Shown: piece by piece, positions 13,748 through 35,489 of the stretch
Layout of the letters: the number at the start of each line of letters is the position of its first letter
Position numbering within the stretch: the stretch's first letter is position 1
Assembly (NCBI GenBank): GCA_001563915.1
Contig: LKMP01000004.1
Location: 1 to 60,472, forward strand
DNA from: Nanohaloarchaea archaeon B1-Br10_U2g21
GTDB taxonomy: Archaea; Nanohalarchaeota; Nanosalinia; Nanosalinales; Nanosalinaceae
Direction: 5' to 3'
DNA length: 60,472 nucleotides
Translations under genes and position numbers: made by a program
The notes under the pieces: generated by a model
What the model was told of the DNA's origin: nothing
What the model saw: the letters and a program-made list of their open reading frames with translations, nothing else
Databases searched by the model: none

Positions 13748-14086
13748 TCAGTGTCGAGGTTCTAGGTTTCCGTCACAACAAGACTGGGTCCCTCCTCCGG
13801 AAGGACAGTCGGCCCCACTTACAATATTTCCATCACATTCTGCTTCTGCTTGATGATAGCATTGATGCCCTAGGTCCTGGCATGATGCGTCTGAAGTATC
13901 GCAGCCTTGCTCATCGGCTTCTTGATAATTGCCTTGTGTTAGGAGAAGCTCGCATTCTGAGTCATCTGTCTGGTTTCCGATGAAGTTTCCGAAGTTACTG
14001 CTTTCTCCTGCGACTAGGAACATTGCTATTGCTGCTGCGAAAACTACTACTACAGCTACTAACACAATCTCAATTGTTTTATCCAT
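13748..14086 (-). CDS. Pilin-like protein, Cys-rich C-terminus, no class III leader
   Basis: N-terminal hydrophobic helix and 8 Cys; directly downstream of a class III pilin. Confidence 0.7.
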   Translation of the reverse strand: MDKTIEIVLVAVVVVFAAAIAMFLVAGESSNFGNFIGNQTDDSECELLLTQGNYQEADEQGCDTSDASCQDLGHQCYHQAEAECDGNIVSGADCPSGGGTQSCCDGNLEPRH

Positions 14087-14104
14087 TTCAAGCTAGTTAT
14101 CTGT

Positions 14105-14419
14105 TTAACATGTTATAGTTTGTTCTTCAGGATTTATTGAAAATCCAGCTTCATTTACGCCGTCTATAGTGTGTCTTTCATTATCTGCGTCTTCAGTTAT
14201 GCAGCTTGAAGGTGCATCTTGGACGGATCCATCTGGTTCGCTCTGGCATATAGACTGTGCTTGGCTTTCGCAGGTCGATGCATCTGCTTGTCCGCCAAAG
14301 TCTACTAGGCCTTCTAGTCCTCCTTGCAGCATGAATACGAGAGATAGTGCTGCTATCATTAGTACTGATGCGGCCACAATGAGCCATAGAATTTGAGATA
14401 GGCCTTTCTTTTGAGTCAT
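14105..14419 (-). CDS. Type IV pilin (class III signal peptide); major pilin candidate
   Basis: MTQKKG|LSQILWL plus hydrophobic helix; 4 Cys; TATA-like element upstream. Confidence 0.8.
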   Translation of the reverse strand: MTQKKGLSQILWLIVAASVLMIAALSLVFMLQGGLEGLVDFGGQADASTCESQAQSICQSEPDGSVQDAPSSCITEDADNERHTIDGVNEAGFSINPEEQTITC

Positions 14420-14507
14420 ATGGTAATTAATTAGGTGGTGCGGTATAAAAAGTCTTTCAAAAAGAAAGATAGGGGAAAATTGTAGTGAACTCGTCCTTGA
14501 GCTTTTC

Positions 14508-14792
14508 TCAAGGTTTGTTGAGGTCGATCTGGATGCTGGATACGTTTAGTTCGTCTCCTTCATCTGTCTCGATTTCATCTGTGCCAATAGTGATATCGTT
14601 TACTTCTGCTTCCTCTACAAACCGATCTCTAACGATTTCTGCAACGTCCACTGCTCTAGAAATTGCTTTTCCTCTAGCTTTTACATGAACTGTTTCGTTT
14701 CCTTCGCTGAACTGCGTGACTACTGCTAGTACATAGCTCATTGCAGGTTTTGATCCTACGTATACTGTATTATCGTCTTCTTGTTCTGACAC
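14508..14792 (-). CDS. albA: DNA/RNA-binding protein Alba
   Basis: [14 protein letters not shown] and [15 protein letters not shown]. Confidence 0.96.
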
Positions 14793-14870
14793 TGTTCATC
14801 ACCTGAGAAACGGTTTAGGCCTCATCTATAAAATACTTTTTTCGGTGCCTCAACACATATGCGGCAAGAG

Positions 14871-15977
14871 TCAATTCCAGTCGAAAGTGTAGTCATCTAT
14901 GTTTAATTCTATACCTCGATACTCTCCGTCAATAAACGGCTCATTATAGTCATCTGTAACATCTAATTCGATTGAGGAGTCTGTAGGAGTTATAGTACCA
15001 TTTGCAGTTTTAGTGTAGTCTCTTTGATCATCCTCGCATTCATCTCCGCAACTACAGTCGTCAACACTTTCTCCATCTTCGTCATCCTTGCAGCTAAGGC
15101 ATTCACAGCTGCATTCACTTTCTCGATAATTTGAAAAATCCTCGTTGGCATTATCAGACTGAGATGTACTTACACTAATGTTGGAGGCTGTATCAATTTC
15201 AGAACTGATGCTTGATGCAGAAGGCGTATCGGACTCATAACTGTTATAGGCGTTTCTTCTTGCCTGCGAAAGCGCCGAAGCTTCAGAACCGCATGAACTG
15301 GCCTCTCCATCGTACTCCTCCTCTAACTCAGTATCTTCAAATTCATCTTCAATTGAGGTATAGAAGCTAGAAGCGTATTTAATTAATTCTCCGTACCGAT
15401 TATCAGATGCGGTGTCATTATGACGGTAGTTTGTTTCTTTGAAAACAATACTTTCAGAATCACTACAAATAAACTCAATAGCGGTGTCATCTGTATGCGC
15501 ATACTCTGAAAGCACCCAGAAATTGGCGTCTTCTAGATTGGTGTCGAAAGTTTCGCTTGTAAGTTTCTCAGGATATATTTGTACATCTAGAGTAGGGTTT
15601 ATACTACAACTAGAACTATCTGATATCATATCATTTAGTCTGTCGCCCGCATCATCTTCCCAAGCTTCTTCCATCTCAGTGTAAAGAGTTTTATTATCGC
15701 CAGGAATATTATCCCATGATACTCCTGCATTATCTTTTCCTAACTCATAAGCTGCATTGTTAACAGTATACACTCCAGAGAAAGGTACGTGATGGTATAA
15801 AGTATGCTCTGCTTTTGAACGAGTTTCTGCAATATTTGTTATGTCTCCTGAGGCCTCTAGCGCCAAATCCTCTATGGCATCCGCTATAGGAATGCCTTGA
15901 ACTGCTAGAGCAGCGGATAGTATAAGTAAAGCTAACATAGGTAATACGCCTTCTAAAGATCCTTTTTCTGTATTCAT
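14871..15977 (-). CDS. Large pilin-like protein with Cys-rich insert
   Basis: EKG|SLEG class III-like leader plus TM; ECSCECLSC...DCSCGDEC cluster. Confidence 0.7.
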   Translation of the reverse strand: MNTEKGSLEGVLPMLALLILSAALAVQGIPIADAIEDLALEASGDITNIAETRSKAEHTLYHHVPFSGVYTVNNAAYELGKDNAGVSWDNIPGDNKTLYTEMEEAWEDDAGDRLNDMISDSSSCSINPTLDVQIYPEKLTSETFDTNLEDANFWVLSEYAHTDDTAIEFICSDSESIVFKETNYRHNDTASDNRYGELIKYASSFYTSIEDEFEDTELEEEYDGEASSCGSEASALSQARRNAYNSYESDTPSASSISSEIDTASNISVSTSQSDNANEDFSNYRESECSCECLSCKDDEDGESVDDCSCGDECEDDQRDYTKTANGTITPTDSSIELDVTDDYNEPFIDGEYRGIELNIDDYTFDWN

Positions 15978-16582
15978 CTTGCTATTGTCGCCTCCAGTCG
16001 TGCATTTTCCTCGTTTGATAATGGAATAGTTCTCACAATAGTTATAGTCGCACTAGTTCCGTCTTGCGTCACATTTATCAGATCGCCATCATGTTCTATA
16101 CGCACATCGTAAGGGCTAGAATCTTCGCTTCCACCTATATGGCTTACTCCTCCTGTTCCTGTTGCGCCCCCAGTACGTCTTCTAGAGGGTGCACGAACCT
16201 CCTCATCACTATCCCAGTATATTTCTGCTTTATACTCTAAATAGGACTGTAAATCTCTGCTGACATTATTTCGAGAATATTTTTCTCCATCTATTACAGG
16301 ATCATCATCGGTAGAGTAGTACAAAGATAAGAGTTCGTAAAAGGTTCTTTCATTGTAATCAGATTCCACTTCGGAAGAATTCTGAATAGGCATATGAAGA
16401 ACAGAATCTATTGAAGAAATGGCTGTAGCGCCTTTAATGCTCATATCAGCCTCTAATTCCATTTCCTCAGTTCTTTCGTCTCCACCTATACTTAAGACTA
16501 CAAAGATAATAAGTGCTAAAAATATTGATACTGCAAAAATCATTATCTCTATTATTATGCCTTGTCCCTTAGTTAATTTCAT
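15974..16582 (-). CDS. Minor pilin-like protein
   Basis: MKLTKG|QGIIIE class III signal; overlaps neighbours. Confidence 0.78.
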   Translation of the reverse strand: MKLTKGQGIIIEIMIFAVSIFLALIIFVVLSIGGDERTEEMELEADMSIKGATAISSIDSVLHMPIQNSSEVESDYNERTFYELLSLYYSTDDDPVIDGEKYSRNNVSRDLQSYLEYKAEIYWDSDEEVRAPSRRRTGGATGTGGVSHIGGSEDSSPYDVRIEHDGDLINVTQDGTSATITIVRTIPLSNEENARLEATIAR

Positions 16583-17075
16583 AGATATGCACCTTTAATG
16601 CGTGTTTCCGGCCATCTTCATCAACTGCAATTACGGGAGATTCTCGATATTCGAGTCTAGAGCTCGTACAGGAAATTTCATCAGGCATACGTTCATCAGG
16701 GTCTGCCTGAGAGACGAAAAAGCCGAAATCTTGTCCATCAAGTCCCGAAACTCTTGGAATGTAACAGTTAGCTCCATCCGTTTCATAGGACAAATCTCCA
16801 TCTTCTGTGAAAAATTCTAGAGGGATAAAGCTCCGGGTTTCTAGTAGTTCAGGGTTTTCAAAGTTCTCTGTATACGCATCTAATTCATTATTATCTAGAG
16901 AGGGATTTAATGTATGTTCCAATACTACTGCTTTGTCGTATTGGCTTTGAGGACCAGTTTCAATATTTGTAGATAAGTTTGTTAGAGCTCCGACGTTTAT
17001 TTGAAGAACTAAAGCTATGCCTACTCCAAGCATAATAAGATAAGGTATTTTAGTAGTTAAGTTGTATAAGTCCAT
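16569..17075 (-). CDS. Pilin-like membrane-anchored protein
   Basis: Hydrophobic N-terminal helix; in pilin operon; ATG at 17075 directly after the upstream stop. Confidence 0.65.
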   Translation of the reverse strand: MDLYNLTTKIPYLIMLGVGIALVLQINVGALTNLSTNIETGPQSQYDKAVVLEHTLNPSLDNNELDAYTENFENPELLETRSFIPLEFFTEDGDLSYETDGANCYIPRVSGLDGQDFGFFVSQADPDERMPDEISCTSSRLEYRESPVIAVDEDGRKHALKVHIYEIN

Positions 17076-17076
17076 T

Positions 17077-17484
17077 TTAGCAATCACTTGAAAATAAGAG
17101 TTGATCAGAAGAATCCGGTCGTACTGATTTTTCAATACAAAGAATGCCGTCATCCCCAACTTCTTCAAATTCGCCAGGTCCGGAGATCTGAGAATAGGTT
17201 TTTTCCGATAATTCGAAACTTTCTTCTGTGTCTCTGAACTTTAGTACGAGTTCAGACCCTTCTATTTTGAATTCATGATCTTCAACCTCTATTTCAAGCT
17301 GTCCCTCTGGATAAGTTTCAAGGCCTGAGGCGGCGTTTACAATTCTTTCGCCTCTCAAATCTACTGTCTGTTCTTTGATAAATTCTAGTATGAATCCTTG
17401 ACTTCCAACTAATACCATCATCACAATTAGGAATGATAGGGCTGCTTCCAGCATTGAGAAAGGATAAGAACTTTGCCCTTTCAT
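17077..17484 (-). CDS. Minor pilin-like protein
   Basis: MKG|QSSYPF class III leader plus hydrophobic helix. Confidence 0.78.
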   Translation of the reverse strand: MKGQSSYPFSMLEAALSFLIVMMVLVGSQGFILEFIKEQTVDLRGERIVNAASGLETYPEGQLEIEVEDHEFKIEGSELVLKFRDTEESFELSEKTYSQISGPGEFEEVGDDGILCIEKSVRPDSSDQLLFSSDC

Positions 17485-17903
17485 TGTTCTGCCTCTATAG
17501 TTACTTCCGCGTTATCGGTGTCAGCTGAAATTAAGGCCTGCCAATGACCGGAATCTATAATATCGTCATTCTGATTTTCTACATCCAGAACTATGAGATA
17601 GCTGCAGTCAAGATCATGTGATTGCTGCTCGTTGCCTTCATCATCTTTTAATAGCATAGTTGAGTCATCTAGCTCGATTTGTTCGCCTTGAAGTTCTCCT
17701 TCTATAGATTCTCCTACTACGTAGCTGTATTGATCCATGTTTCTACACTGATTTTCAACGACGTTTGTTAGGCTCATAAAGAATTCTTCACCAGGTTCTG
17801 AGGAGGATGTCTCTCCGAATTCATTCATGATTCCCATTATAGGCCCTAGTCCTAGAATTACTGTCATTACGCCAAGAATAATGAAAACTACAGAGTGTTC
17901 CAT
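17481..17903 (-). CDS. Pilin-like membrane-anchored protein
   Basis: MEHSVVFIILG hydrophobic N-terminus; ATGA coupling to the next gene. Confidence 0.68.
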   Translation of the reverse strand: MEHSVVFIILGVMTVILGLGPIMGIMNEFGETSSSEPGEEFFMSLTNVVENQCRNMDQYSYVVGESIEGELQGEQIELDDSTMLLKDDEGNEQQSHDLDCSYLIVLDVENQNDDIIDSGHWQALISADTDNAEVTIEAEQ

Positions 17904-17906
17904 AGT

Positions 17907-18116
17907 TCAATCATCTCCGTTACTGCCAAAGATATTGCAGTCTCCGTCTTCTTCTCCTCCTTGAGCTAATTCTCCAAAACAAGAGGCGATTCCGCCGCCC
18001 TCATCTTCGATTTCGTCTCCTCCTTGGCTTATTACTGTGCTTGTGGCTCCATATATGCCTACTAGTGTCATTAAAATGATTACAAATGCGACTAAGACTG
18101 TTATGCTCATCCTCAT
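17907..18116 (-). CDS. Small pilin-like protein
   Basis: MRMSITVLVAFVIIL helix and a Cys pair; GGTGGT SD-like sequence upstream. Confidence 0.65.
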   Translation of the reverse strand: MRMSITVLVAFVIILMTLVGIYGATSTVISQGGDEIEDEGGGIASCFGELAQGGEEDGDCNIFGSNGDD

Positions 18117-18120
18117 TTTT

Positions 18121-18273
18121 CTATAAACCACCTATTGTTAGATCAATGTTTGATAATCCAAATTCTTCTACTGATGTAATATTCCCGCTCAAAAGTATTC
18201 CTAGCAACATTATTATCATTATAGCTACTACAAAAGTGATTACCATCGATAGACTTAGCTCAAGGCCTTTCAC
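18121..18273 (-). CDS. 50-aa mini-pilin (not in ORF track)
   Basis: Hand translation from GTG: MKG|LELSLSMVITFVVAIMIIMLLGILLSGNITSVEEFGLSNIDLTIGGL*. Confidence 0.78.
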   Translation of the reverse strand: MKGLELSLSMVITFVVAIMIIMLLGILLSGNITSVEEFGLSNIDLTIGGL

Positions 18274-18308
18274 ATCGAGTAGTTGTATATCTTCGTTGAA
18301 ATAGGTTT

Positions 18309-18458
18309 TCAGTCTTCAGGCTGGAACACTAGGCCTTCTAAAAATTCATCCATGACGTGTGTGAACCATGACTCAAAACTGACATAGAGTAGCACTACTA
18401 CCATTATACCTAGGGCTATAACTGAAATAGTTTTTACACTGAATTCTATACCTTTCAT
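18309..18458 (-). CDS. 49-aa mini-pilin
   Basis: MKG|IEFSVKTISVIALG; GAGG upstream of ATG 18458. Confidence 0.78.
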   Translation of the reverse strand: MKGIEFSVKTISVIALGIMVVVLLYVSFESWFTHVMDEFLEGLVFQPED

Positions 18459-18478
18459 TGTTTCCTCGTTTTTTAGTA

Positions 18479-20074
18479 TCATCTTGGGGTTGTTTCCCAT
18501 TCGCCTGTACTGGTATCGCAGCTCCAGTTATCTATATGTTGTAAATCCGTATCAAGCTCATCATGACATAAATGCCACTCTGCATAATTTTCATCATTAG
18601 GGTTTGCGCATAGTAGTTCTGCTTCAAGCTCATATTTTAGATTAGATCTATCTCTTAAATCATTATTTGTGAAGTCAGATTCTCCGAATTCATCTTCTAC
18701 TTCTCCTCTTAATTGTATATTAGGTATAAGCTCCTGAAGATGTTCTTGTCCATCATTGCCTCCTCCTTCGCCATGCTCCCAATCTTCAGGTTCTTCTTCT
18801 CCTTCCATAGCATCAAACCATATTCCACTATAGAGCTGGGTATCTGGATCTGTGCCTGCCGCAGCCTCAGTAGGGATATTAGTGTCTAAAGGGTACGCTG
18901 CTGCTTCTCTAATGTGTGTTTGTCCATCATCATACTCTGCAAAAAGCTGGCAACGATCAGGCCCAGGATTATGTCCTCCAGATTCTTCAATATCTTCCAA
19001 GTTTTCATCTCTGAGTTCAAAGGTATGTGCTGTATGAGTGTCTCCGCCACCCGTCAGCGTAGCTCCCCAACCAGTGTACCATTGTGGCCCGGTGAATGGT
19101 CCTCGATAGTCTAAAGGACTTCCAAGATCTACGTCGTCATCACAGGTTTCATGTTCGCTGTCTTGAACAACTATGATTGGATACAAAGGTTCATGATCAT
19201 TGTAGCTTTCGTCATCTATCTGGCCTCTATTGCCTTGAACATAGCCTGAATCTCCTTCGCATAATGTTACCTTCACATCAATCTCTCTACCTTCAGTTGA
19301 AGGATCCATATTTGTCCGATCATAAACATCTTGATTTTCAAAAAATAGGGATACTGGAGCTATATCAGTTTCATCATCAATATAGTTTGCTACAGTTGCT
19401 CCAATTGCGCCAAGGATGGCGCCTGCGGTTGCGCCTGCAGCTGTGCCTCCAGGCCCTACAACGCTGCCAACCATTCCGCCTCCTGCGGCGGTAGTCTGCC
19501 AGTTAACGTCTCCGCCTCCTTCATGTTCTATTTCGTCTGAGTACTGGGAGGGATAGCCTTCTAAAACTATATCTATATTTCCTTCAAAGTCATCGTATCC
19601 TAGTTCTAAGGGAGTTTCTCCTTGTAGCCATCCGATTCGCAGAGTCATGTTTTCTTCAATTATAAATTGTTCTTTTGAGTAAGAGCCTGCCATAAAGTTA
19701 TCATCAGCTCCAAGACCGCCAGGATTAATTCCATCTAAACCTCTCGCAAGCCCGGCTTCGCCTCCGAAACAGTCTGGGTTACTGGTTAAAACAGTTCCTT
19801 CTAGCCCTTCATACCCTCCTTCTTCTTCATTCATTCCTTTTACTGCTTCACAACCGTCATTTATTCCTCTGTCTCTTGTGTAGGCCATTAGATCAGATAA
19901 AGCTTGTTTATCTTCTATTTCTACAGTAGGATCCTCATCTGCTCCTAGGTCATCGAATCCTTGCTGGATTGCTTCTCCTAGAGAGCCTACTGTAGCTGCT
20001 GATATGAAGAGTGAGGCAACTAAGAGACCTATAGCTAGGTGCATTATAGCACCTATGCCCATTCCCTTTAGCAT
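18479..20074 (-). CDS. Large pilin-like adhesin or tip candidate with internal glycine zipper
   Basis: MLKG|MGIG class III-like leader; several Cys; GGGMVGSVVGPGGTAAGATAGAILGAIG segment. Confidence 0.72.
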   Translation of the reverse strand: MLKGMGIGAIMHLAIGLLVASLFISAATVGSLGEAIQQGFDDLGADEDPTVEIEDKQALSDLMAYTRDRGINDGCEAVKGMNEEEGGYEGLEGTVLTSNPDCFGGEAGLARGLDGINPGGLGADDNFMAGSYSKEQFIIEENMTLRIGWLQGETPLELGYDDFEGNIDIVLEGYPSQYSDEIEHEGGGDVNWQTTAAGGGMVGSVVGPGGTAAGATAGAILGAIGATVANYIDDETDIAPVSLFFENQDVYDRTNMDPSTEGREIDVKVTLCEGDSGYVQGNRGQIDDESYNDHEPLYPIIVVQDSEHETCDDDVDLGSPLDYRGPFTGPQWYTGWGATLTGGGDTHTAHTFELRDENLEDIEESGGHNPGPDRCQLFAEYDDGQTHIREAAAYPLDTNIPTEAAAGTDPDTQLYSGIWFDAMEGEEEPEDWEHGEGGGNDGQEHLQELIPNIQLRGEVEDEFGESDFTNNDLRDRSNLKYELEAELLCANPNDENYAEWHLCHDELDTDLQHIDNWSCDTSTGEWETTPR

Positions 20075-20265
20075 AGTGATATATCAGACACATCAGCCAA
20101 GATACTGCCAATATTTCTTAAAAATCCAGTACATCCTGCTGCATCTTCGGTACCTAGTATGGCAGGAAATGCTAGAAGCGCGAATATTGCTGCAATAGTT
20201 ATTGCTATGATAAGGCCTATTATTATTTTAATAGGCATGCTTTCTTGACCTTTCAAGGGTTTCAC
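20068..20265 (-). CDS. Small pilin
   Basis: MKPLKG|QESMP class III leader; TM; Cys pair. Confidence 0.78.
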   Translation of the reverse strand: MKPLKGQESMPIKIIIGLIIAITIAAIFALLAFPAILGTEDAAGCTGFLRNIGSILADVSDISLC

Positions 20266-20299
20266 ATACCATTTGAGGTTTTTACTAGATTTAAAGGTT

Positions 20300-20437
20300 C
20301 TAGTCTAGGGATTGCTCCAATGCAGATATCATTTGCGTTTCCACCATGTTATATACCACAAATACGATTAATGCTGTTGCTATTGCGCCCAGAGCTATTA
20401 AAATCATGTATCTAATTGTTTCATCAATTCCTTTCAT
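20300..20437 (-). CDS. 45-aa mini-pilin (not in ORF track)
   Basis: Hand translation MKG|IDETIRYMILIALGAIATALIVFVVYNMVETQMISALEQSLD*; ATGA overlap with the platform gene stop. Confidence 0.8.
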   Translation of the reverse strand: MKGIDETIRYMILIALGAIATALIVFVVYNMVETQMISALEQSLD

Positions 20438-24914: not shown

Positions 24915-24955
24915 CCTAGCATTATTATTCGCGTTTTGCTAAAATAAAAGATAGG

Positions 24956-26801: not shown

Positions 26802-27386
26802 TTAACCTCCGCCGCTTCCGCCTCCTCCAAACAGCCATTCTACTCGTTCTCCAACGCTAGGACCACTATTATCGTTGCCGTCATCTTTCAAGGTCCAAGC
26901 TAGGACTCCAGCTATCAATAAAAGCCAGATAAGCCCTGTATCAATTAATATTGGCCATAGATCTGATAAATCGTATTCTCCAACTTCTACAGTTTCAGGG
27001 CCTAGCCCTCCTGCAGTGAAGAATGCGGAAGCCACAATAGATATTATTAATAAGACTCCTAGAGGGCTCCGTAAATCGCCTCTACTCCACCCAAATAGGC
27101 CTACAAGAACCATAAGGCCGACTATTCCAACTATACCAATTGTAAGTCTTCCGAAGTAGTCTATGAAGAACTGCTGGTAGAACGGGTTTACAGCTATAAA
27201 CTGTGCTGTAAAGAAAGCAGATATTATAGCTATTAATGCTGCGTGTTTATCCTCGCTAAATAAATCTACTTGTTTTAATGCCAGGAAGAATACTACATAA
27301 GATAGTACAAAAGGTAGCACCAATGTAAAGAAATCTAGCTGGGCCATAGTTTCAAGGAGGGTTGAAAATCCTTCAGCTTCTGTCAT
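26802..27386 (-). CDS. Polytopic membrane protein (paralog family A)
   Basis: VLPFVLSYVVFFLALKQ...HAALIAIISAF; poly-Gly tail. Confidence 0.8.
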   Translation of the reverse strand: MTEAEGFSTLLETMAQLDFFTLVLPFVLSYVVFFLALKQVDLFSEDKHAALIAIISAFFTAQFIAVNPFYQQFFIDYFGRLTIGIVGIVGLMVLVGLFGWSRGDLRSPLGVLLIISIVASAFFTAGGLGPETVEVGEYDLSDLWPILIDTGLIWLLLIAGVLAWTLKDDGNDNSGPSVGERVEWLFGGGGSGGG

Positions 27387-27392: not shown

Positions 27393-27656
27393 TTAATCCC
27401 TCTGATCCCTTTGTTCAAGGTAGTACGAAAGCTTCCTGTTCATTAGCCACAATTCTCGGCCGATTATCATCAATGCAAGCATCGTTATCCAAGGAAAAAT
27501 CACTCTTCCAAAGGATATTATATCCCAATCTGCAGTAGAAACGAATAAGACCCACGCAGTTACCGATATGGCACCCAGTGAGAGTATAATTATAGCAAGT
27601 TCATCTGCAATATTTTCAAGTTCATACATGTAGCGGTGTAGTTTATCTCGATTCAC
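27393..27656 (-). CDS. Small two-TM membrane protein
   Basis: 87 aa; two hydrophobic segments; tight operon spacing. Confidence 0.72.
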   Translation of the reverse strand: MNRDKLHRYMYELENIADELAIIILSLGAISVTAWVLFVSTADWDIISFGRVIFPWITMLALMIIGRELWLMNRKLSYYLEQRDQRD

Positions 27657-27657: not shown

Positions 27658-27798
27658 TTACATCATCCCCATTCCCATACCGCCTCTTCTCATTTTACGT
27701 TTCATCATAGTTGTTCCAGCCAAGTACCCTATAACAGCACCTGCTATTAATATATCAATATTAGTTACGGCCCGATCAATTATTTGTTCTGCTGGCAT
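27658..27798 (-). CDS. 46-aa single-TM protein with GGMGMGMM tail (not in ORF track)
   Basis: Hand translation MPAEQIIDRAVTNIDILIAGAVIGYLAGTTMMKRKMRRGGMGMGMM*; GAGGG upstream; stop lies 1 nt before the next start. Confidence 0.75.
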   Translation of the reverse strand: MPAEQIIDRAVTNIDILIAGAVIGYLAGTTMMKRKMRRGGMGMGMM

Positions 27799-27875
27799 CT
27801 ATATTTTCCCTCTACAGTTGTAAGTTGATTACTTTCGTTTAAATAATTAGGGCGGCTTTGACAGCTGAGAAAGGG

Positions 27876-29474
27876 TTAGGACAAGCTGTCGATGTATCTT
27901 TTTACCCATTTCTCAAAAGTGTAGTATCTATAGGCCTCCCAAAAGTTCAGCTGATTTTTCTTGAGCTTTGATAAGATTTTATTAGAATCATATAATTTTC
28001 TTGACTGAAATTCGCGGCTTTCAAAAGTAGTCTCCAGTTCTTGAAGGATGGAGGGCGTATAGTATCTGTTATCTGTATGGATAAAACCAGTCTTCTTCTT
28101 TCGCTGATAAATAGGCTGAGGTAAATCTTCTCTAAATATATCTCTCAAAACTTTCTTGTTTCTTCCACTTCCGAAATGCGATAATGGATTAATATTATCT
28201 GTCTTCAACTTAATAGACTTTGATAGAAAAGCTGCTTTAGCCTCATGACTATGTTTCTTAGAATTTTTAGATATGGACCTTAGAATATGGGGGAAAGAAA
28301 AACTTTCCAGATGAGTTTTTCGAGCCTCTTCAAGGCTTTCAGGTCTTTCATAAGACAGGTCTTCAACGCAGTAATGAGAAATTCTCGGATTCTGAGGTTT
28401 ATAGAGTCCACCTGTTACTAATCTAATTACTTCTCGTTTTTGAAAACTATTTAACTGACTTCTATATTTCAAAAAAGCGCTCATACCTTCTATTACGCCT
28501 TTAGCAAGCTTTTCGCGTATGTAATAAGGAATAAATTTAGGATAGCCATAGAAAAATTCGTCTGCTGCAGATCCATGAACTAGGATTGAGTCTCCTTTTT
28601 CTTCTTGCAGTTTTCTGTAGAACTGATCTTGTGCTTGAACTGCTAGCATTCCTGTGGGCTCTTCTTGGTGTTCGAGACTTTCTGATATGCCATGAAAAAG
28701 TCTATCAACCGAAAATTTGAAGATTTCAACGTCTATTCCGTATTTTTCCTCCACTAATCTAAAGAATCTTTCATCTCCCGTTTTCTTATCAAAAGAAACA
28801 TGAACGAACTCAGCATTTTTGTTTGCAGACATTGAAGCTACTATTGAAGAATCAAGTCCGCCGCTTATAGGACATATAAATTTTTCTTCAGGGAGTTTAC
28901 GTCTTATTTCTTCTCTAACTGTTTCATCAATGTTGCGGCTATCTCTAAGAGTGTAATCGGGTCTAAACACTTTCAACTTATTTTTAGAAAATTTTATTGC
29001 TTCTCGTGGTTTTAATCTTTTAATATTCTTGAAAAATGTTTCTCTCCGATGGTCTACACGTCCAGTATGCAGGTAATCCAAAGCTACGTTTCTATTCAAA
29101 TTTGCTTGATTGTAAAATTGGATTAATGGTTTAATACGATCAGAAATGGCTATTTCACCTTTTTTCTCTACGTAATATATCGGGCGAGAGCCAAAAATAT
29201 CTCTATAAAGAGTAATGCCTTTTTTCTCTATGATTAAGGCCATGTAGTTGTCTTCTAAGCGTGTAGTGAAGTCTGAGTCCTTATACTCTGTCAGTTTAGG
29301 GAGAAGAGCTGTATCAAGATCAGTTAAAACTATTTGGTTTTCAAGCTCTATCTTATTAAGGTCCTCGTAGCATATCGTGAAACCATACTGCTCTAATGTT
29401 ATATTGTCATTGTTGAGGCAGATTTCTGCGTTACTAGAATTATTGAAAGAGTTTGAACTTAGTAAAAAGACCAT
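27876..29474 (-). CDS. Asparagine synthetase-like ATP pyrophosphatase/amide ligase lacking the N-terminal catalytic Cys
   Basis: RDIFGSRPIYY, PP-loop SGGLDSS, ADEFFYGY and RKKKTGF. Confidence 0.85.
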   Translation of the reverse strand: MVFLLSSNSFNNSSNAEICLNNDNITLEQYGFTICYEDLNKIELENQIVLTDLDTALLPKLTEYKDSDFTTRLEDNYMALIIEKKGITLYRDIFGSRPIYYVEKKGEIAISDRIKPLIQFYNQANLNRNVALDYLHTGRVDHRRETFFKNIKRLKPREAIKFSKNKLKVFRPDYTLRDSRNIDETVREEIRRKLPEEKFICPISGGLDSSIVASMSANKNAEFVHVSFDKKTGDERFFRLVEEKYGIDVEIFKFSVDRLFHGISESLEHQEEPTGMLAVQAQDQFYRKLQEEKGDSILVHGSAADEFFYGYPKFIPYYIREKLAKGVIEGMSAFLKYRSQLNSFQKREVIRLVTGGLYKPQNPRISHYCVEDLSYERPESLEEARKTHLESFSFPHILRSISKNSKKHSHEAKAAFLSKSIKLKTDNINPLSHFGSGRNKKVLRDIFREDLPQPIYQRKKKTGFIHTDNRYYTPSILQELETTFESREFQSRKLYDSNKILSKLKKNQLNFWEAYRYYTFEKWVKRYIDSLS

Positions 29475-29509
29475 TAATACGGTAAACTAGTCTTTAATAG
29501 TTTATATCT

Positions 29510-30550
29510 CTAGACCTCTGCGGCACTAACGGATTTAGTTTCGGGATGTGGGCTCCCATGGTCACTTTCAATAGATGCTAATACATCGTCTATTAACTCG
29601 CCACTGGACTCGTGGTAATCTGTTCCGCAAGTAGGATTATTTTCATATATGATAACTTCCTCAGGAGTTTTTACGTAGTCAATAGCGGTAAAGTCTAAGC
29701 CTTCTGCTGCACGACTAACTGCTTTAGCTTCGATATCATCTAATTCTGAGCCGTCTACATATTGCCCTCCTTTAGCAAGATTAGTCGCTAATTGCTCATT
29801 ATTTTGGCGAGTAGTTGTTGCAACTACTGAGCCTCCGGCTATGTAGGCTCTTCTATCTTCGTATTCGTCTTTCGTGTCGTGAGGTATATATTCTTCTATA
29901 ATGCCGTCTTCATACTCATCTAGAAATCTGTCAATCTCGTCTTCTGAATGTAGTTTTGTGACGCCATCGCCGCCTGAGCCGTCAACAGGTTTACCGACTA
30001 AGACTCTGTCTTTAGCTATCTCATAAGCTTCATTAGGATTATACTGTTCTACCGTCCTGGCATTATCAAGTCCGGATAGCTGGTGTTCTAATAAATCAAC
30101 TGTTAGGTCTTTTTGGTCATGTAGTGCTGATAGAAGAGGATCGTTCAGTAGCTGAAGGTCATGTTCGTTTTGGAGCCTGTATAGATTATTAAACGCCTCT
30201 AAAACAGGGTCTTCATCATCTATATGAGGTTTTTCGTTATTAAAAAGGCTTCTTATTAATTTATCTAGCTCTGTTCTATTTCTATTGTTTAGAAAATTCT
30301 TATGTCTGTATAAGAACTTCTTACCGTTTATTTTTGCGCCAAGTTCATCTATTTCATCTTCTTCAAGTCCTGTAAGGTCATTAAAGCCTAGAGATTTGAT
30401 GTTAAGATCTTCTTGATCGGCTTTCTTAGTTATTCTTCTTCTTGTTCGCATATCTCTTTCGCCGCCATATATTAGGTCGGCATCTTCTAGAAGTCCTTCT
30501 TCAAGGATTAAGTCGTGGCTATTCTGCATCAGACTTTTGAACATAGTCAT
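29510..30550 (-). CDS. RimK-like ATP-grasp ligase
   Basis: KPVDGSGGDGV, EEYIP, DRR, TNLAKGG, AIDY and ENNPTCG. Confidence 0.85.
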   Translation of the reverse strand: MTMFKSLMQNSHDLILEEGLLEDADLIYGGERDMRTRRRITKKADQEDLNIKSLGFNDLTGLEEDEIDELGAKINGKKFLYRHKNFLNNRNRTELDKLIRSLFNNEKPHIDDEDPVLEAFNNLYRLQNEHDLQLLNDPLLSALHDQKDLTVDLLEHQLSGLDNARTVEQYNPNEAYEIAKDRVLVGKPVDGSGGDGVTKLHSEDEIDRFLDEYEDGIIEEYIPHDTKDEYEDRRAYIAGGSVVATTTRQNNEQLATNLAKGGQYVDGSELDDIEAKAVSRAAEGLDFTAIDYVKTPEEVIIYENNPTCGTDYHESSGELIDDVLASIESDHGSPHPETKSVSAAEV

Positions 30551-30602
30551 TACTTGTGAGTCATAACTTTAAATGTCTTTTTGGACAATGAAGGACAGTA
30601 GA

Positions 30603-32123
30603 TCATGGTAATTTCTTCTCCAAATCTTTTACTTGCTGGTATAATTTGGATTCATATTTCTCAGCGGATGAGATGTGGCTTTCTAATATGTTGATTTCAT
30701 TTTGCATATCATTTATTTGATCTATGCAGCTGTCAATGTAGCTTGACATATTACTACCATTGGCGTAAGCAGTGGAGAGCGTCCCGAGTCTTTCAAGTCG
30801 AGTATGTATTTCGCCTGTTAACTTGAGTAGCTGTGATAGCTTGTTGATCTCCGACTCATCAAGTTTGAAGTCGCGTTTGAGTAAACTTTCCAACCGCTTT
30901 AAGCGATCCTCAAACTTGGGGATATCGCCTCTAATTCCTGCTAAAACATTCCTGAATTCATTTACGTCCGTATTGAGATCTCCTCTAGAGGTATGTACTC
31001 CGCGGTCCGAAGCCTCCTGTATTACTTCCAAAAGCTTTTCATCATCAGAAATCAGATGATCTATGTCATAAGGATTTTCCTTTATGAATGCAATAACTCG
31101 GAGAACGTGAGGTACATCTTCCATTACATGCTTAAAATCATCTCTAGCTCTGAGAGCAGGATCATTACTAATAATACTTTTTAGCTGTGCATTTAGAGTC
31201 CTTAACTCTGGCAAAGGATTTCTATCATTATTTTTGAGATTATTAAAATACTGTTCTAACTCGCTTCCGCTGAAATTTAAGCCCGTATTCTCAGGATCAT
31301 CTCGCTGCTCCGAAACTTGTATAAATGCTCCAAAAACAGTGTTAAGCGATTCTGCCCTATCTTTCACGCCTTGAAAACTATCAAAAGCCTTTTCGTTGTT
31401 CGTGATGTCTTGTTCAGCGTTACGAAGATTGTTATCTATAGATCCTAGATGGCTGTGTGCGGATTCAAGCTCTGATATAAAATCGGAATCAAAGTGTTGT
31501 AATGCGGCGTTTAGGCCTTGAATTTGTCTTTGTTGTTGTCTTTGGCTGTAGCCTTCTCCTATTTCTCTTCCAGTTCTTGCTAGTTCTTCTCCTAGTGCTC
31601 TGTATGGCTCTACGTTTTGCTCTTGTGAGGGTTCAGGTTCAGGCTGAGGTTGAGGCTCTGGTTCAGGCGCTGTTTCTGCCGCAGAAGCCTGTCTTTCGGG
31701 AATTAGTCCTGTGTAAATTATTGTGGCGAGCGCTAGAGCTGCTAAACCTGCTAGTGCCAGAAGACCTGAAGATATTGCTCCTATTGTAAGTACAGTGGTT
31801 GTCGCTGCGACGAGTGAGAAACCTTTCATTCCAGTAGGAATATCATCATCTGTATTATGATAGTCATGTCTGCCTATACGTTCTTCAAATGTCTCATATC
31901 CCATTGAGGTAAAATTTTTGATCAAGAAATAGAACCCTATGATGGGCATGATAATAAATAACAGAACTTCTCCGGCTGTTTCTACTTGAAAAGTAGTTAT
32001 AGTGTTTACAAACTCTACCAAACTTTCTTCGACCGTCATTTGTGCGCCAAAAGTCTGGGCTGTCGCTCCTGAGATATATGCAAGTATTGTTGAGGCGAAA
32101 ACAACGGTTTTACGGCCTGCCAT
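30603..32123 (-). CDS. Membrane protein (family A-like N-terminus) with PE-rich linker and long helical domain
   Basis: Signal/TM segments including IMPIIGFYFLIK; PEPEPQPQPEPEP linker; coiled coil. Confidence 0.8.
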   Translation of the reverse strand: MAGRKTVVFASTILAYISGATAQTFGAQMTVEESLVEFVNTITTFQVETAGEVLLFIIMPIIGFYFLIKNFTSMGYETFEERIGRHDYHNTDDDIPTGMKGFSLVAATTTVLTIGAISSGLLALAGLAALALATIIYTGLIPERQASAAETAPEPEPQPQPEPEPSQEQNVEPYRALGEELARTGREIGEGYSQRQQQRQIQGLNAALQHFDSDFISELESAHSHLGSIDNNLRNAEQDITNNEKAFDSFQGVKDRAESLNTVFGAFIQVSEQRDDPENTGLNFSGSELEQYFNNLKNNDRNPLPELRTLNAQLKSIISNDPALRARDDFKHVMEDVPHVLRVIAFIKENPYDIDHLISDDEKLLEVIQEASDRGVHTSRGDLNTDVNEFRNVLAGIRGDIPKFEDRLKRLESLLKRDFKLDESEINKLSQLLKLTGEIHTRLERLGTLSTAYANGSNMSSYIDSCIDQINDMQNEINILESHISSAEKYESKLYQQVKDLEKKLP

Positions 32124-32162
32124 AAGTTTAAACTGGGGTCAGCCTGTTTTTATGTGCTATCC

Positions 32163-32597
32163 TCACTGAGGCCTCACAAAGAGATAGATCATAAATAAGA
32201 ACAGCAGTATAAGAGCTCCGACAGCGAGTACGCCTATAGAGGCCGCCATCTGTTGTATTAGCTCCCAATATGGAGATACGACGACCATTAGTGCTATAGC
32301 AATTGCCATAATAGTTGCTTCCTTGTTCACATTGGGTCCGTCATCTAAAGGATTATCGCTGTTATCAAAAGTGAATTCGAGCGCTCTTTTTAGAGAGAAC
32401 TGGAGTAGAATTGTTAAGAAGAGGAAAGGGGCCACGAACTTTGCAACTATTTCTTCTTGTGATTCAAATTCAGGCACTACAAACCAGTCGTCTGCAGTAT
32501 GTCGGTCTGTGTAATAGTAATCTGCGGAGGCCAATGAAACGAGTAGAAAAATTGAAATTAGTATGCTGGAGATTTTAGTTGCCGAAGTCAAAGTCAT
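32163..32597 (-). CDS. Membrane protein (paralog family A) with signal peptide
   Basis: VAPFLFLTILLQFSLKR...VNKEATIMAIAIAL; start at 32597 (ATG) or 32591 (TTG). Confidence 0.78.
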   Translation of the reverse strand: MTLTSATKISSILISIFLLVSLASADYYYTDRHTADDWFVVPEFESQEEIVAKFVAPFLFLTILLQFSLKRALEFTFDNSDNPLDDGPNVNKEATIMAIAIALMVVVSPYWELIQQMAASIGVLAVGALILLFLFMIYLFVRPQ

Positions 32598-32862
32598 CTC
32601 CTCCGAAATCATCTCCTCCTCCGAAGTCGCCTCCACCAACGCCTCCGGAAGCGTGGCCTTCTCTTATTTCATGTATGTAAGCAGGAATCACTTCATCTAC
32701 TAGGAAACCTACTACTAACCCTGATAACGCAAGCACGATTACAGTATTCATCCATGGCTCAAGGCCTAGTACATTCTCTGCAATATCTTCAGTAAGCAAG
32801 GCAATAAAATATCCTCCAATAGCTGCTGCAGGATAAGAGGCAATTGTCCAGAGGTTTTTCAT
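32575..32862 (-). CDS. Two-TM protein with Gly/Asp/Phe repeat tail
   Basis: C-terminus GGVGGGDFGGGDDFGGDDFDFGN. Confidence 0.78.
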   Translation of the reverse strand: MKNLWTIASYPAAAIGGYFIALLTEDIAENVLGLEPWMNTVIVLALSGLVVGFLVDEVIPAYIHEIREGHASGGVGGGDFGGGDDFGGDDFDFGN

Positions 32863-32930
32863 ATGTTAGAACTTGTATTCTGTTGTTTAATAAGATAAGG
32901 AAAAAAGAGATGGGAAAGTAATGGAAGAAG

Positions 32931-33413
32931 TTATTGTCTGCCCATTCCCCATTCCATGAACTTGCCGCCGCCTTGTGAAAGCGCTTGAACAATATTGTGT
33001 GTTTCCTCAAGGTCTTTATTCACTACTTGTTCATCTTGTACTGCGGCTCCAATTTTTTGCTCTGCATCTCGTACTTCTTGTTGAGCTACTTCTATTTCCT
33101 CTAATAATCCTTCTACTTTCTCTACTTCTCTGAGAAGTTGATCAACGCCTCCAACCTTGTTGCTTTTGTTAATTATGCTTTGGACTTCAGAGTGAATCTT
33201 TCCGTGAGGCTGATTCAAATCGACGTTTCTAAAGTAAGCCATCATTTCAAGAACTGCGTCTTGTCCTTGAAGGCCTTTCAGAGCATGAGCTAGTTTCTGT
33301 TCTGCATCACGCTGTTCCTTGACTGCTTCTACTTCTAGCTCTTCTTCTTTCTCTAGGTGTTGAATTTCCTCTTTTAAATCCTGTAATAACGTCAGTGCTG
33401 GTTCTTCTGGCAT
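32931..33413 (-). CDS. Soluble helical protein paralogous to the C-terminus of the 676-aa neighbour
   Basis: YFRNVDL...HSEVQ...VEGLLEEIE shared with the 33459 ORF. Confidence 0.82.
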   Translation of the reverse strand: MPEEPALTLLQDLKEEIQHLEKEEELEVEAVKEQRDAEQKLAHALKGLQGQDAVLEMMAYFRNVDLNQPHGKIHSEVQSIINKSNKVGGVDQLLREVEKVEGLLEEIEVAQQEVRDAEQKIGAAVQDEQVVNKDLEETHNIVQALSQGGGKFMEWGMGRQ

Positions 33414-33458
33414 ACTCTAAACTTATAGTTCTCTCTTTTTATTACCTAGGGTTAACTA

Positions 33459-35489
33459 CTATGGAGGATTGTGGTATCCTTGATCTATGCACCGCTCATA
33501 ATTAGAAGCACCTTCACGTATCATTTCGATCACTTTATCCATTTCATCCATTGTGTATTCTTTTTGCCGATCTATCTGTGTAAGTTCTATATCCTTCTCA
33601 AAAGAGTCTTTAACTTCTTGGTGAGCTAACTCTATTTCTTCTAATAAGCCCTCTACCTTTTTCACTTCTTTAAGTAAATGGTCTACATCTCCTACTTCAT
33701 TAAGTTTTTTAATTATATTCTGTACCTCAGAATGAACTTCTCCTGGAGGCCTATCTAAATCAACTTTTCTGAAGTACAACATGGCTTTGAGTACTGCTTT
33801 CTCATCCATTAATGCCTTTAACGCATCTTTCAACCTTCTTACAGCTTCTTGCTTCTCTTCGATACTTGCAGTTTCTATATCTTCACTCGCTTCCAGTTTA
33901 TCAATTAAATCTTGTATGGCCTTTCCTAAAGCACTTGCAGTAGGGTTTCCTCCATCTGGCGGAGTTTTTGGCTGAGTTCTACCTACTTCAATTTGTTCGA
34001 TTCTATTTCTTGAACCTCCTGATTCAGATATTACAGTAAGCCCATAGTTGTGAGTTTCGCCTTCTCCAAATTGAAAGTTTCCGACAATCTGAGCTATCGG
34101 TACTTCTCCTTCATAAGATGAAGAGTCAAGCCCTACAGCTTTTTGCTGGCCATCAAAGTTGAATATTGCTTGCTGTAGAGTGGTGTTTGAACCACATCTT
34201 ACGTATAAAGAAACGTTTTGAGAGGTCATTCCTGCTTGAGGAATAGGTCTAAGTTTTATGTCCTCTATTACTATATTCTCATCTTCCTCTCCGTTTTCAA
34301 TAGTCTTTTCAATTAAAATTATTATTCGTTCTAGAGCCGCTTCGTCTATAATTTGAATGTTTAGGGATGTTAGCTGTTGAACTAGTTGAGTCATTACGAT
34401 ATTTATCCGAGAGCTAGGAATATTTTCGAGTATTTGGATTAGCTGAAGAATGGTTTTGAGATTAAACTCCATTTTATCAAAGTCCACAGGATTTATAACG
34501 ATCATATCTCCTGAAATAGAGTAATGCTTGTGTATTAGGGCTTCAAAGATCTCTACTAGCTGAAGACAAATATTTTGCTGCTGATGCGTAATATTTTGCT
34601 GATTTTCTACTATGGAGATAAAATTCTGAGTTATATTCTGTATCTGTTTTTGGTTGATTTGCTGCTGTATATTTATGTTTTGAGCATTGCTGGTAGAATT
34701 TCCTTCAAAATAATTTATTACTTGATTAATAGTCTGGTTATTGATATGGTCTCCTGAACTATTGTCTATTGCGTTTAGAATATTTCTTACCTCTTCAATA
34801 GAGATATTCTGAGACTGTATGATTGTCAGAAAGGCTTCAACAATAGAAGCATCGATAGTGATATCAGGAGCATCTCTTTCTCCTCTAACATAGATGGTGT
34901 CGCCGCGTCTACCGAAGTTGCCCATAATAATCTGGAAAAACTCCATCATGGCTAACTGATTTTGAAACTGTTGCTGTTGTTGCATCTGTTGAATCTGTGC
35001 GGCAAACCTCTGTTGAGAAGCACTCATGCTTTGATTATCGTTACTATTATCGATGTTCTGATAAAAACTGCCTCCTCCGCCAGGACCTCCTGAACCGCCG
35101 TCTCCTCCATCTCCTCCGTCTCCTCCGTCGCTGCCACCATCTGTAGTGGGCGGATTAGTGGGTGGATTAGGAGGAGGGCTAGGGGGATTGGTTGTAGGAG
35201 AATTGGAATCTGAATTTAGAAGGCCTGATAGTATTCCTGCTCCAAGCCCTGCTAATCCTGCTGCTCCTGCTCCGCTATTACTGCTTCCGCCGCTTCCGCT
35301 TCGCGCTACCCAAGCGATTAGACCTATTATTACTATGGTAGCAGCAAGTATGGGTATGCTGAAGAAAAAGTCTAGTATTGCAAATCCTGCGCCTCCTAAA
35401 GCAGGTAACAGTCCGGTGAGCCATAGACCTGCGAGTGCGAAGAAAAGTATCAGTATTATTATTGCGCCTATACCTTGCAGGATGGCCAT
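33459..35489 (-). CDS. Multi-domain membrane protein (TMs, Gly/Pro linker, Q/N/I-rich region, beta domain, helical domain)
   Basis: Composition blocks visible in the translation. Confidence 0.82.
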   Translation of the reverse strand: MAILQGIGAIIILILFFALAGLWLTGLLPALGGAGFAILDFFFSIPILAATIVIIGLIAWVARSGSGGSSNSGAGAAGLAGLGAGILSGLLNSDSNSPTTNPPSPPPNPPTNPPTTDGGSDGGDGGDGGDGGSGGPGGGGSFYQNIDNSNDNQSMSASQQRFAAQIQQMQQQQQFQNQLAMMEFFQIIMGNFGRRGDTIYVRGERDAPDITIDASIVEAFLTIIQSQNISIEEVRNILNAIDNSSGDHINNQTINQVINYFEGNSTSNAQNINIQQQINQKQIQNITQNFISIVENQQNITHQQQNICLQLVEIFEALIHKHYSISGDMIVINPVDFDKMEFNLKTILQLIQILENIPSSRINIVMTQLVQQLTSLNIQIIDEAALERIIILIEKTIENGEEDENIVIEDIKLRPIPQAGMTSQNVSLYVRCGSNTTLQQAIFNFDGQQKAVGLDSSSYEGEVPIAQIVGNFQFGEGETHNYGLTVISESGGSRNRIEQIEVGRTQPKTPPDGGNPTASALGKAIQDLIDKLEASEDIETASIEEKQEAVRRLKDALKALMDEKAVLKAMLYFRKVDLDRPPGEVHSEVQNIIKKLNEVGDVDHLLKEVKKVEGLLEEIELAHQEVKDSFEKDIELTQIDRQKEYTMDEMDKVIEMIREGASNYERCIDQGYHNPP

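Follow-up and report, generated by a model that had tools for sequence, protein, structure and literature searches.

A conserved pilus-like unit within a composite block

The window analysed here is a stretch of DNA of 60,472 nucleotides, the whole of contig C19 of a nanohaloarchaeal genome (G000; 0.82 Mb in 24 contigs, 92% complete) with a very acidic proteome, in which most proteins have an isoelectric point (pI) of 4.0-5.0. Positions 13748-35489, where nearly every gene lies on the minus strand, hold a block of pilin-like, secretion motor, coiled-coil and membrane protein genes that an initial annotation, made from the letters alone, had read as a candidate undescribed host-contact machine. 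Two DNA sequencing runs of a salt lake metagenome may be the source of the sequence; the list of runs included no RNA. The block falls into layers: a core formed by the platform, the ATPase, the coiled-coil genes CC140 and CC296 and the tandem five-transmembrane (5-TM) genes mem167 and mem194; a set conserved at family level (mem87, a 46-amino acid (aa) open reading frame (ORF), mem158 and mem95); and variable genes (an AsnB-like gene, an ATP-grasp gene, mem506, sol160 and mem676). The conserved unit is the ATPase, the platform, CC140, CC296 and the 5-TM array. We give about an even chance to the view that the whole is a composite with an ancient and strongly conserved DPANN machine at its centre, one that resembles a type IV pilus. 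The core comprises:

20434..22599, minus strand: platform (TadC/FlaJ-like), polytopic, 721 aa; T2SSF PF00482, 8.7e-8, 32.6 bits against a cut-off of 25.2
22662..24914, minus strand: secretion/pilus ATPase, 750 aa; T2SSE PF00437, 1.3e-16, 60.7 bits against a cut-off of 24.9
24915..24955, no strand: divergent intergenic region, 41 bp, A/T-rich, between the ATPase and CC140 start codons
24956..25378, plus strand: CC140, soluble coiled-coil protein without TM segment; only sub-threshold coiled-coil matches
25403..26293, plus strand: CC296, soluble; short N-terminal motif, small three-helix domain, Q/P-rich linker, coiled coil
26295..26798, minus strand: mem167, 5-TM, founding member of a conserved family (AlphaFold2 model, profile searches)
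26802..27386, minus strand: mem194, paralog of mem167 (hhalign 99.5%)

The motor genes and the two divergent coiled-coil genes, the first of which starts 41 bp from the ATPase start codon, had been recognized in the initial annotation and are borne out. The comparisons below draw on 70 genomes of the window's phylum, all within one order and 28 of them of high quality; on the ATPase neighbourhoods of 24 relatives, among them eight family genomes examined for gene order, with which 32 window proteins were compared by tblastn; and on 81 genomes evenly drawn from a second phylum, that of G070, which holds locus L062 (Candidatus Aenigmatarchaeota). G000 is the genome that carries the window, other G numbers are relatives or comparison genomes, C numbers are contigs, and L052-L073 are Aenigmatarchaeota loci.

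The ATPase and platform genes are 62 bp apart. A Walker A motif (G-x-x-G-x-G-K-T) is readable in the ATPase translation, and the best NCBIfam model is FlaI (1.5e-40), beyond which the N-terminus extends by about 280 aa. The block does not read as an archaellum locus by two markers: the FlaI score is 139.5 bits against an equivalog cut-off of 550, and archaellin (PF01917) has no match in G000, at 92% completeness. ATPase orthologs are present in 41 of 41 relatives, with 74-96% identity in the family and 54-64% in other families; between phyla the full-length ATPase keeps 49-53% identity, compared with 33-45% for Dph5 and 32-43% for Trm5. The platform is 56-85% identical within the family and 29-32% identical to its counterparts in the Aenigmatarchaeota loci. 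CC140 orthologs adjoin the ATPase in both phyla. The architecture of CC296 is likewise common to orthologs of both phyla in an alignment of 20, where the coiled coil ends in a near-invariant C-terminal motif and none of the proteins has a signal peptide or N-terminal TM segment; nine of the 20 match DUF7310 and eight match FlaC_arch.

Two side observations concern the ATPase gene. The 41-bp region between it and CC140 holds two A/T-rich boxes, each about 25 nt from the start of the opposite gene, an arrangement compatible with a shared bidirectional promoter or with interleaved promoters for leaderless transcripts. In several genomes of both phyla the ATPase ortholog is a single stop-free frame of 1249-2013 aa in which the similarity to the window's ATPase is broken into two parts, at residue 487-492 (545-547 in G104 and G094). 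Such frames occur among relatives (G001:C13:2636-6364, G004:C3:4771-8511, G009:C48, G016:C2, G039:C11 and G028:C8) and in the other phylum (G133, G094, G106, G138, G088, G120, G135 and G104), and they look like the product of an intein that entered both phyla at one and the same position. No such insertion is present in the ATPase of the window.

The 5-TM family stays with the pilus-like genes in two phyla

In all eight family genomes the gene order is the same: iPGM, pilins, Alba, variable pilins, platform, ATPase, CC140, CC296, mem167, mem194, mem87, a variable stretch, mem158, mem95, a second variable stretch, DUF357, Dph5 and Trm5. This proves little because the housekeeping flanks are equally syntenic at that range. 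The platform, ATPase, coiled-coil and mem genes are kept in other families too (G031, G035, G033, G030, G013). By profile search the mem family is present in 61 of the 70 genomes of the window's phylum, including 27 of the 28 of high quality, in arrays of 2-4 copies. Nine genomes lack it: seven of these also lack an ATPase ortholog, and the other two have the ATPase at a contig end. In G029, G037 and G028 a single contig, separate from that of the ATPase and platform, carries CC140, CC296 and the mem genes, which have moved away as one unit; in G029 and G037 Dph5 and Trm5 did not move with it.

The family reaches well beyond halophiles. Its members, proteins of about 170-200 aa (160-220 aa overall) in tandem arrays of 2-5 copies, were gathered into a profile of 29 that retrieves 2859 cluster representatives (50% identity) at E<=1e-3 and 1353 at E<=1e-10. 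Among the best 150 representatives, 60 have a pI of 5 or above and are therefore not from halophiles. Atlas searches returned only archaeal clusters without names, which serve as leads for the taxon range. Eleven non-halophile members led to 22 genomic loci, and all of those with a stated phylum belong to metagenome-assembled genomes (MAGs) of Candidatus Aenigmatarchaeota. There, the platform and an ATPase of about 750 aa lie on one strand, and CC140, CC296 and 3-5 tandem mem genes lie on the other, followed by (DUF357,) Dph5 and Trm5. Of the 22 loci, 11 show the ATPase and 13 show CC296, these 13 being every locus in which the sequence upstream of the array exceeds 3.3 kb. The array and the coiled-coil genes occupy opposite strands in the window's order and share a strand in Aenigmatarchaeota.

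Across the 81 genomes of the second phylum, mem genes were found in 80, as was an ATPase ortholog (45-56% identity). At least 58 of the 77 genomes in which both could be placed have mem within 10 kb of the ATPase, mostly with a gap of 1.1-2.6 kb, the size of two coiled-coil genes. These distances come from a hand tally of the matches listed:

mem within 10 kb of the ATPase: 58 genomes
mem on the same contig, further away: 3 genomes
mem and ATPase on different contigs: 16 genomes
mem matches outside the list: 2 genomes
no mem match: 1 genome
no ATPase ortholog: 1 genome

In L054-L073, additional small membrane ORFs lie between CC296 and the array. They carry a signal-peptide-like leader and then a mem-like motif, recall the N-termini of mem158 and mem506, and several of them match the mem profile weakly (1e-9 to 1e-3).

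Paralogy, family assignment and topology of the mem proteins

mem167 and mem194 are paralogs at the profile level only: profiles of 16 orthologs each align with 99.5% hhalign probability (E 1.6e-22) over the first ~100 residues, pairwise BLASTP between the two proteins is not significant (E 1.4), and an all-against-all BLASTP of window proteins found sol160 and mem676 as the sole related pair. A profile search of G000 recovered no mem member besides these two. No Pfam family recurs among the 16 members from the window's phylum, the 48 non-halophile members give scattered single matches, and NCBIfam gives nothing consistent. The initial annotation had noted that a match to known transporters would undo its proposal; none of the orphan membrane proteins matches a known transporter family over cut-off in Pfam or NCBIfam, the sub-threshold matches of mem194 being DcuA_DcuB (16.2 bits against 27) and COX15 (15.9 against 29.9). 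The sole repeated match of the family is DUF2070, a Pfam entry for archaeal predicted membrane proteins, found weakly in 9 of the 48 non-halophile members (best 2.8e-5). It is a lead only: its model spans 561 positions, compared with proteins of 160-220 aa, none of the 16 halophile members matches it, and a search of five Aenigmatarchaeota genomes with DUF2070 gave 0 of 5 at E<=0.01. Single matches to VirB2-type pilins (1 of 48 with Pfam, 1 of 11 with NCBIfam) are too weak to carry an assignment.

The AlphaFold2 model of mem167, built from 150 sequences, has a mean predicted local distance difference test (pLDDT) score of 83 and consists of an N-terminal helix followed by five long helices. 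A likeness of the fold to an archaeal conjugation pilin (8dfu; Z 5.2, root-mean-square deviation 8.6) was too weak for use. In the 30 of 48 non-halophile members to which a crude predictor gave five TM segments, the mean number of K plus R alternates along successive segments (0.67, 3.13, 0.27, 2.83, 0.63, 3.63). Segments rich in K and R face the cytoplasm according to the positive-inside rule, and the N-terminal helix is therefore predicted to lie outward and the C-terminal tail in the cytoplasm. Complex prediction of mem167 plus mem194 with CC296 as partner scored 0.00, below the mark, in a trial that had no control runs, and so speaks neither for nor against an interaction.

Pilin-like genes

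The run of about 13 pilin-like genes proposed initially is confirmed as 13 minus-strand ORFs with an N-terminal hydrophobic stretch at 13748-20437. Nine of the 13 have K-G directly ahead of that stretch, two (18121-18273 and 20300-20437) are shorter than 60 aa, and none matched a pilin Pfam family. Class III signal peptides combine a short charged leader, G or A at position -1 and a hydrophobic helix; this pattern, and not a prediction tool, was the yardstick here. One Alba gene sits inside the run:

13748..14086, minus strand: pilin-like ORF, 112 aa, hydrophobic from residue 1, without K-G; syntenic in 6 of 8 family relatives
14105..14419, minus strand: pilin-like ORF, 104 aa, K-G ahead of the hydrophobic stretch; syntenic in 8 of 8 family relatives
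14508..14792, minus strand: Alba (PF01918, 1.1e-22), inside the pilin run, not part of the system
14871..15977, minus strand: large pilin-like ORF, 368 aa, K-G; C-terminal part acidic and Cys-containing; genus only, plus weak partial matches
15974..16582, minus strand: pilin-like ORF, 202 aa, K-G motif
16569..17168, minus strand: pilin-like ORF, 199 aa, TTG start; an internal Met near 17075 is probably the real start
17077..17484, minus strand: pilin-like ORF, 135 aa, K-G at residues 2-3
17481..17903, minus strand: pilin-like ORF, 140 aa, without K-G
17907..18131, minus strand: pilin-like ORF, 74 aa, without K-G
18121..18273, minus strand: small pilin-like ORF, 50 aa, K-G at residues 2-3
18309..18500, minus strand: pilin-like ORF, 63 aa, K-G at residues 16-17
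18479..20074, minus strand: large acidic pilin-like ORF, 531 aa, K-G motif
20068..20265, minus strand: pilin-like ORF, 65 aa, K-G motif
20300..20437, minus strand: small pilin-like ORF, 45 aa, K-G at residues 2-3; overlaps the platform stop

The A24 prepilin peptidase model PF01478 has no match in G000 and weak matches in five of five complete relatives. G000 does carry, at C17:25475-25681, the N-terminal fragment of a divergent A24-like peptidase gene, cut by the contig end at 25686, which adjoins another T2SSE ATPase (C17:22963-23658). Further T2SSE and T2SSF genes lie outside the block in this genome.

Orphan genes and embedded enzymes

Next to the core, the 46-aa ORF, mem87, mem194 and mem167 are closely packed on the minus strand, 1-6 bp apart, and converge on the coiled-coil genes. 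The remainder of the block reads:

27393..27656, minus strand: mem87, 2-TM; family-level conservation, 13 of 24 neighbourhoods by tblastn
27658..27798, minus strand: 46-aa membrane ORF, ending 1 bp ahead of the mem87 start
27876..29474, minus strand: AsnB-like amidotransferase (Pfam 2.5e-24), pI 9.1; 0 of 24 neighbourhoods, variable insert, not part of the system
29510..30550, minus strand: RimK-type ATP-grasp (Pfam 3e-8); variable insert, 2 of 24 neighbourhoods (G001, G023)
30603..32123, minus strand: mem506, signal-peptide-like N-terminus, TM segments, long coiled coil; 5 of 24 neighbourhoods
32163..32639, minus strand: mem158, signal-peptide-like N-terminus and TM segments; 11 of 24 neighbourhoods
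32575..32862, minus strand: mem95, small membrane protein; family-level conservation, 12 of 24 neighbourhoods
32931..33413, minus strand: sol160, soluble coiled-coil protein, paralog of the mem676 C-terminus (BLASTP 4.8e-33)
33459..35489, minus strand: mem676, N-terminal TM segments, low-complexity G/P/Q/N-rich region, C-terminal sol160-like domain

Eight orphans had been counted initially, and seven membrane proteins and one soluble protein without a Pfam family over cut-off are indeed there; the count overlooked a ninth, the 46-aa ORF, which keeps its position across the genus (identity 95, 63 and 55%) and is weaker in other genera. Likewise, the block is continuous as a one-strand run and functionally interrupted by Alba, the AsnB-like gene and the ATP-grasp gene, all three of which are passengers; the initial annotation had passed over the two enzymes. 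Internal paralogy holds for mem167/mem194, for sol160 and the mem676 C-terminus and, from a profile comparison (hhalign 88.5%), for mem158 as a probable distant mem member; for mem506, membership of the mem family is unsupported (8.5%). The linkage to pilus genes expected of all the orphans is conserved for the mem167/mem194 family, whose members adjoin the motor and coiled-coil genes both in the window's order and in a second DPANN phylum, and for mem87, mem158 and mem95 at family level only.

The distal genes behave differently. Apart from G003, mem506 was seen only in G001, G004, G010 and G014; its range is the genus plus two weak matches. Its 42% identity to the ortholog in the closest relative (G003, where mem87 is directly followed by mem506), compared with 73-96% for neighbouring genes, makes it hypervariable within a conserved locus, and it may be a fast-evolving accessory. 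A jackhmmer search with sol160 over the relatives' ORFs found only sol160 and mem676 of the window, and a homolog search with mem676 found none at E<=1e-3 among proteins of 371-1183 aa, a weak test in which low-complexity words may crowd the candidates; tblastn matches in G023 (sol160) and in G001 (mem676) were therefore not confirmed. By this comparison mem676 is unique to G000 among the genomes examined. mem158, mem95, mem506, sol160 and mem676 make up a variable zone and encode, at most, accessory or surface factors of particular lineages. Being lineage-specific, neither the distal orphans nor the two enzymes should be counted as parts of the conserved machine.

As to the enzymes themselves, the AsnB-like gene has no Cys at residue 2 and the lowest GC content of the region (0.371), and the pair is missing in G003, whose ATPase is 96% identical. 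Weak NCBIfam matches at 27876-30550 include lasso-peptide cyclase and NAGGN amidotransferase models. The two genes may be a recently acquired pair that modifies a peptide or an osmolyte.

Discussion

Pilus-like loci with coiled-coil proteins are not unprecedented: two such loci, conserved in Nanohaloarchaeota, Woese-, Pace-, Nano- and Aenigmarchaeota and Undinarchaeota, have been described and put forward as candidates for host interaction (Hamm et al., 2024, Nat Commun 15:6449, PMC11291902); their coiled-coil proteins resemble sigma-1 (6GAO), and several proteins were detected by proteomics. Those loci share with the window a CpaF-like ATPase and a TadC-like platform beside coiled-coil proteins, a nanohaloarchaeon-type genome, an occurrence in Aenigmatarchaeota and a 6GAO look-alike. 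The arrangement of coiled-coil genes flanked by pilus ATPase and platform is found both in the window's order and in Aenigmatarchaeota. GroEL, GatE and Mpg are not among the window genes scanned, in agreement with 'locus 2' of that study. The one sign, an indirect one, that CC296 may belong with the published proteins NAR1_03220 and NAR1_01690 is the shared 6GAO look-alike. The portion of the text covered mentions neither a 5-TM tandem family nor its topology or near-universal presence; Supplementary Dataset 13, with ten genes on each side of the coiled-coil proteins, may list these genes. Nor is the mem family mentioned in the parts covered of the main texts on nanohaloarchaeal and DPANN type IV pili (including PMC9563170, PMC6642349, PMC6393860, PMC5898192 and a 2026 bioRxiv preprint). 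'Undescribed' was thus too strong a word for the machine as a whole, whose ATPase, platform and coiled-coil genes have been published across DPANN, and it holds for the mem family within the text covered: what is known is the pilus and coiled-coil core, and what is so far unremarked is the 5-TM membrane family.

Two better-studied systems offer points of comparison. Subclade 4F pili, according to Makarova, Koonin and Albers (2016, PMC4858521), combine an ATPase and TadC with the intracellular coiled-coil protein arCOG07564, and the ATPase clade is also noted there from 'nanoarchaea' in which pilins are not recognisable. The window resembles them in its ATPase, TadC-like platform and intracellular coiled-coil accessory, 9 of 20 CC296 orthologs weakly matching DUF7310; it differs in its polytopic membrane array, for which the section covered describes no equivalent. 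The archaellum (FlaI/ArlI, FlaJ/ArlJ, FlaC/D/E, FlaX) shares with the window FlaI as the best ATPase model, an ATPase-platform gene pair and a weak FlaC_arch likeness of the coiled-coil partners.

We hypothesize a pilus-like motor for which the coiled-coil proteins provide a scaffold in the cytoplasm and the 5-TM paralogs a collar in the membrane, a model that in our judgement is equally likely to prove right or wrong. We favour it because the synteny survives inversion and translocation, because mem and ATPase tend to be absent together, and because of the predicted topology. CC140 and CC296 would act on the ATPase-platform motor as a scaffold or regulator, in the manner of the archaellum proteins ArlC/D/E or FlaX or of arCOG07564 in 4F pili, given their weak resemblance to FlaC and DUF7310 and the lack of both signal peptides and TM segments. 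The 5-TM paralogs could assemble into a hetero-oligomeric collar beside the platform, with K/R-rich loops and tail toward the cytoplasm and the scaffold and the conserved amphipathic N-terminal helix outward, toward the pilus base or the envelope. The ATPase would power assembly of a filament from the pilin-like proteins, presumably once an A24 peptidase, whose gene lies outside the block, has processed them. The pilus-linked membrane complex beyond plain adhesion pili that was proposed initially is in this respect partly supported, by the linkage of the mem family; its further elaboration into a channel or attachment organelle, of which we saw no sign, would still be inference.

Several observations weigh against the scaffold and collar model. 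The coupling of mem to the pilus is suggested by synteny only, and the translation enzymes Dph5 and Trm5 are just as syntenic, following the array in 18 of the 22 Aenigmatarchaeota loci and in the window's family; this weakens the argument, as the linkage could stem from an ancient neighbourhood that has stayed frozen. It also has breaks: the array lies 52 kb from an intact platform-ATPase-coiled-coil cluster in G136, G145 and G144 have a lone ATPase with no detectable coiled-coil gene nearby and no strong platform match, and 16 of 77 genomes have mem on other contigs (among the matches listed). Co-absence in incomplete MAGs may mean only a missing contig. The FlaC_arch and DUF7310 scores of the window's own coiled-coil protein are sub-threshold (20.2 bits against 27.8), and coiled coils cross-match easily. 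Foldseek of the mem167 model against the PDB gave no match at E<=1e-3, and the best VIA-align hit (Z 6.4) is a generic hairpin, all but one of the alignments listed covering the first helices only (residues 1 to ~94); the fold resembles nothing known, and no mechanism can therefore be drawn from structure. Finally, filament, expression and contact site all lie outside this gene-level evidence.

Taken to its end, the point about Dph5 and Trm5 would make the mem array and the orphans mere residents of an ancient conserved gene order, with an unrelated membrane function, just as Dph5, Trm5 and DUF357 are. We consider this unlikely, yet it is the most serious of the alternatives: the two enzymes are syntenic across two phyla as much as the ATPase is, the whole neighbourhood, including iPGM and Alba, is kept in eight of eight family genomes, and the cluster is dispersed in G136, G144 and G145. 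A passive neighbourhood nevertheless fits poorly with the joint movement of CC140, CC296 and mem without Dph5 and Trm5 in G029 and G037, with an adjacency that outlasted the inversion of the array between phyla, with the lack of a second array copy in G000 and with the co-absence of mem and ATPase in seven of the nine mem-less genomes. At the other extreme, the pilus and all eight or nine orphans might together form one host-contact organelle or material-exchange channel. The genes are contiguous on one strand, mem158 is a probable mem relative, mem506 evolves as fast as a host-facing protein might, and DPANN pilus-like loci have already been put forward as interaction candidates. We regard this as improbable: sol160 and mem676 have no confirmed relative in the 24 neighbourhoods, the AsnB-like and ATP-grasp genes interrupt the block and are absent from G003, mem506 reaches no further than the genus and two weak matches, and nothing points to a channel.

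The coiled-coil proteins might instead be exported and displayed by the pilus system as attachment fibres similar to sigma-1, after the resemblance described by Hamm et al. (2024). The 20-ortholog CC296 profile does match reovirus sigma-1 (6gao, the entry cited there) at E 2e-4, but it does so amid generic coiled coils: GCN4, haemagglutinin HA2 and designed helical proteins score similarly, and the match is therefore to coiled coils in general. Together with the lack of any N-terminal signal peptide or TM segment in the 20 aligned orthologs and the weak family resemblance to FlaC and DUF7310, this makes exported fibres a poor prospect, on a par with the all-orphan organelle. The cytoplasmic scaffold remains the reading we prefer for these proteins.

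A more ambitious proposal, which we judge doubtful and only slightly better placed than those last two, is that ATPase, platform, coiled-coil proteins and 5-TM array form a core envelope machine of cluster 2 DPANN that builds or gates a conduit to the host and is not an adhesion pilus; the 5-TM proteins would be a pore or collar, the coiled-coil proteins a cytoplasmic gate, and mem506-like neighbours would set host specificity. An essential function would fit the presence of mem in 61 of 70 and 80 of 81 genomes, the higher conservation of the ATPase compared with Dph5 and Trm5 and the recurrent putative intein insertion in the ATPase. Host attachment and material uptake by DPANN have no machine assigned; few candidates have been published, and pilus-like loci that carry coiled-coil proteins belong to them. 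To these loci, the present analysis adds a component: a near-universal 5-TM family of two phyla, without a Pfam or NCBIfam family, in tandem beside the motor. The conserved mem helix that the model places on the outer face could be an antibody target.

Flanking genes

The downstream flank at 35516-37626 comprises DUF357, Dph5 (diphthine synthase; 175.6 bits against a cut-off of 114.3) and a Trm5b-like gene. Synteny of translation genes with a pilus-like cluster across phyla is unusual; DUF357 was detected in one of the 22 Aenigmatarchaeota loci. Just outside the other end of the block, 10839-12236 (minus strand) encodes a coiled-coil protein of 465 aa with 32-39% identity in the family. Further downstream lie a very acidic protein of 506 aa without a family (37646-39166, minus strand) and, at 45702-50728, two large proteins (1066 and 575 aa) with Ig-like or CarboxypepD_reg-like domains, which may be surface proteins; several ORFs of 317-936 aa without a Pfam family follow that pair.

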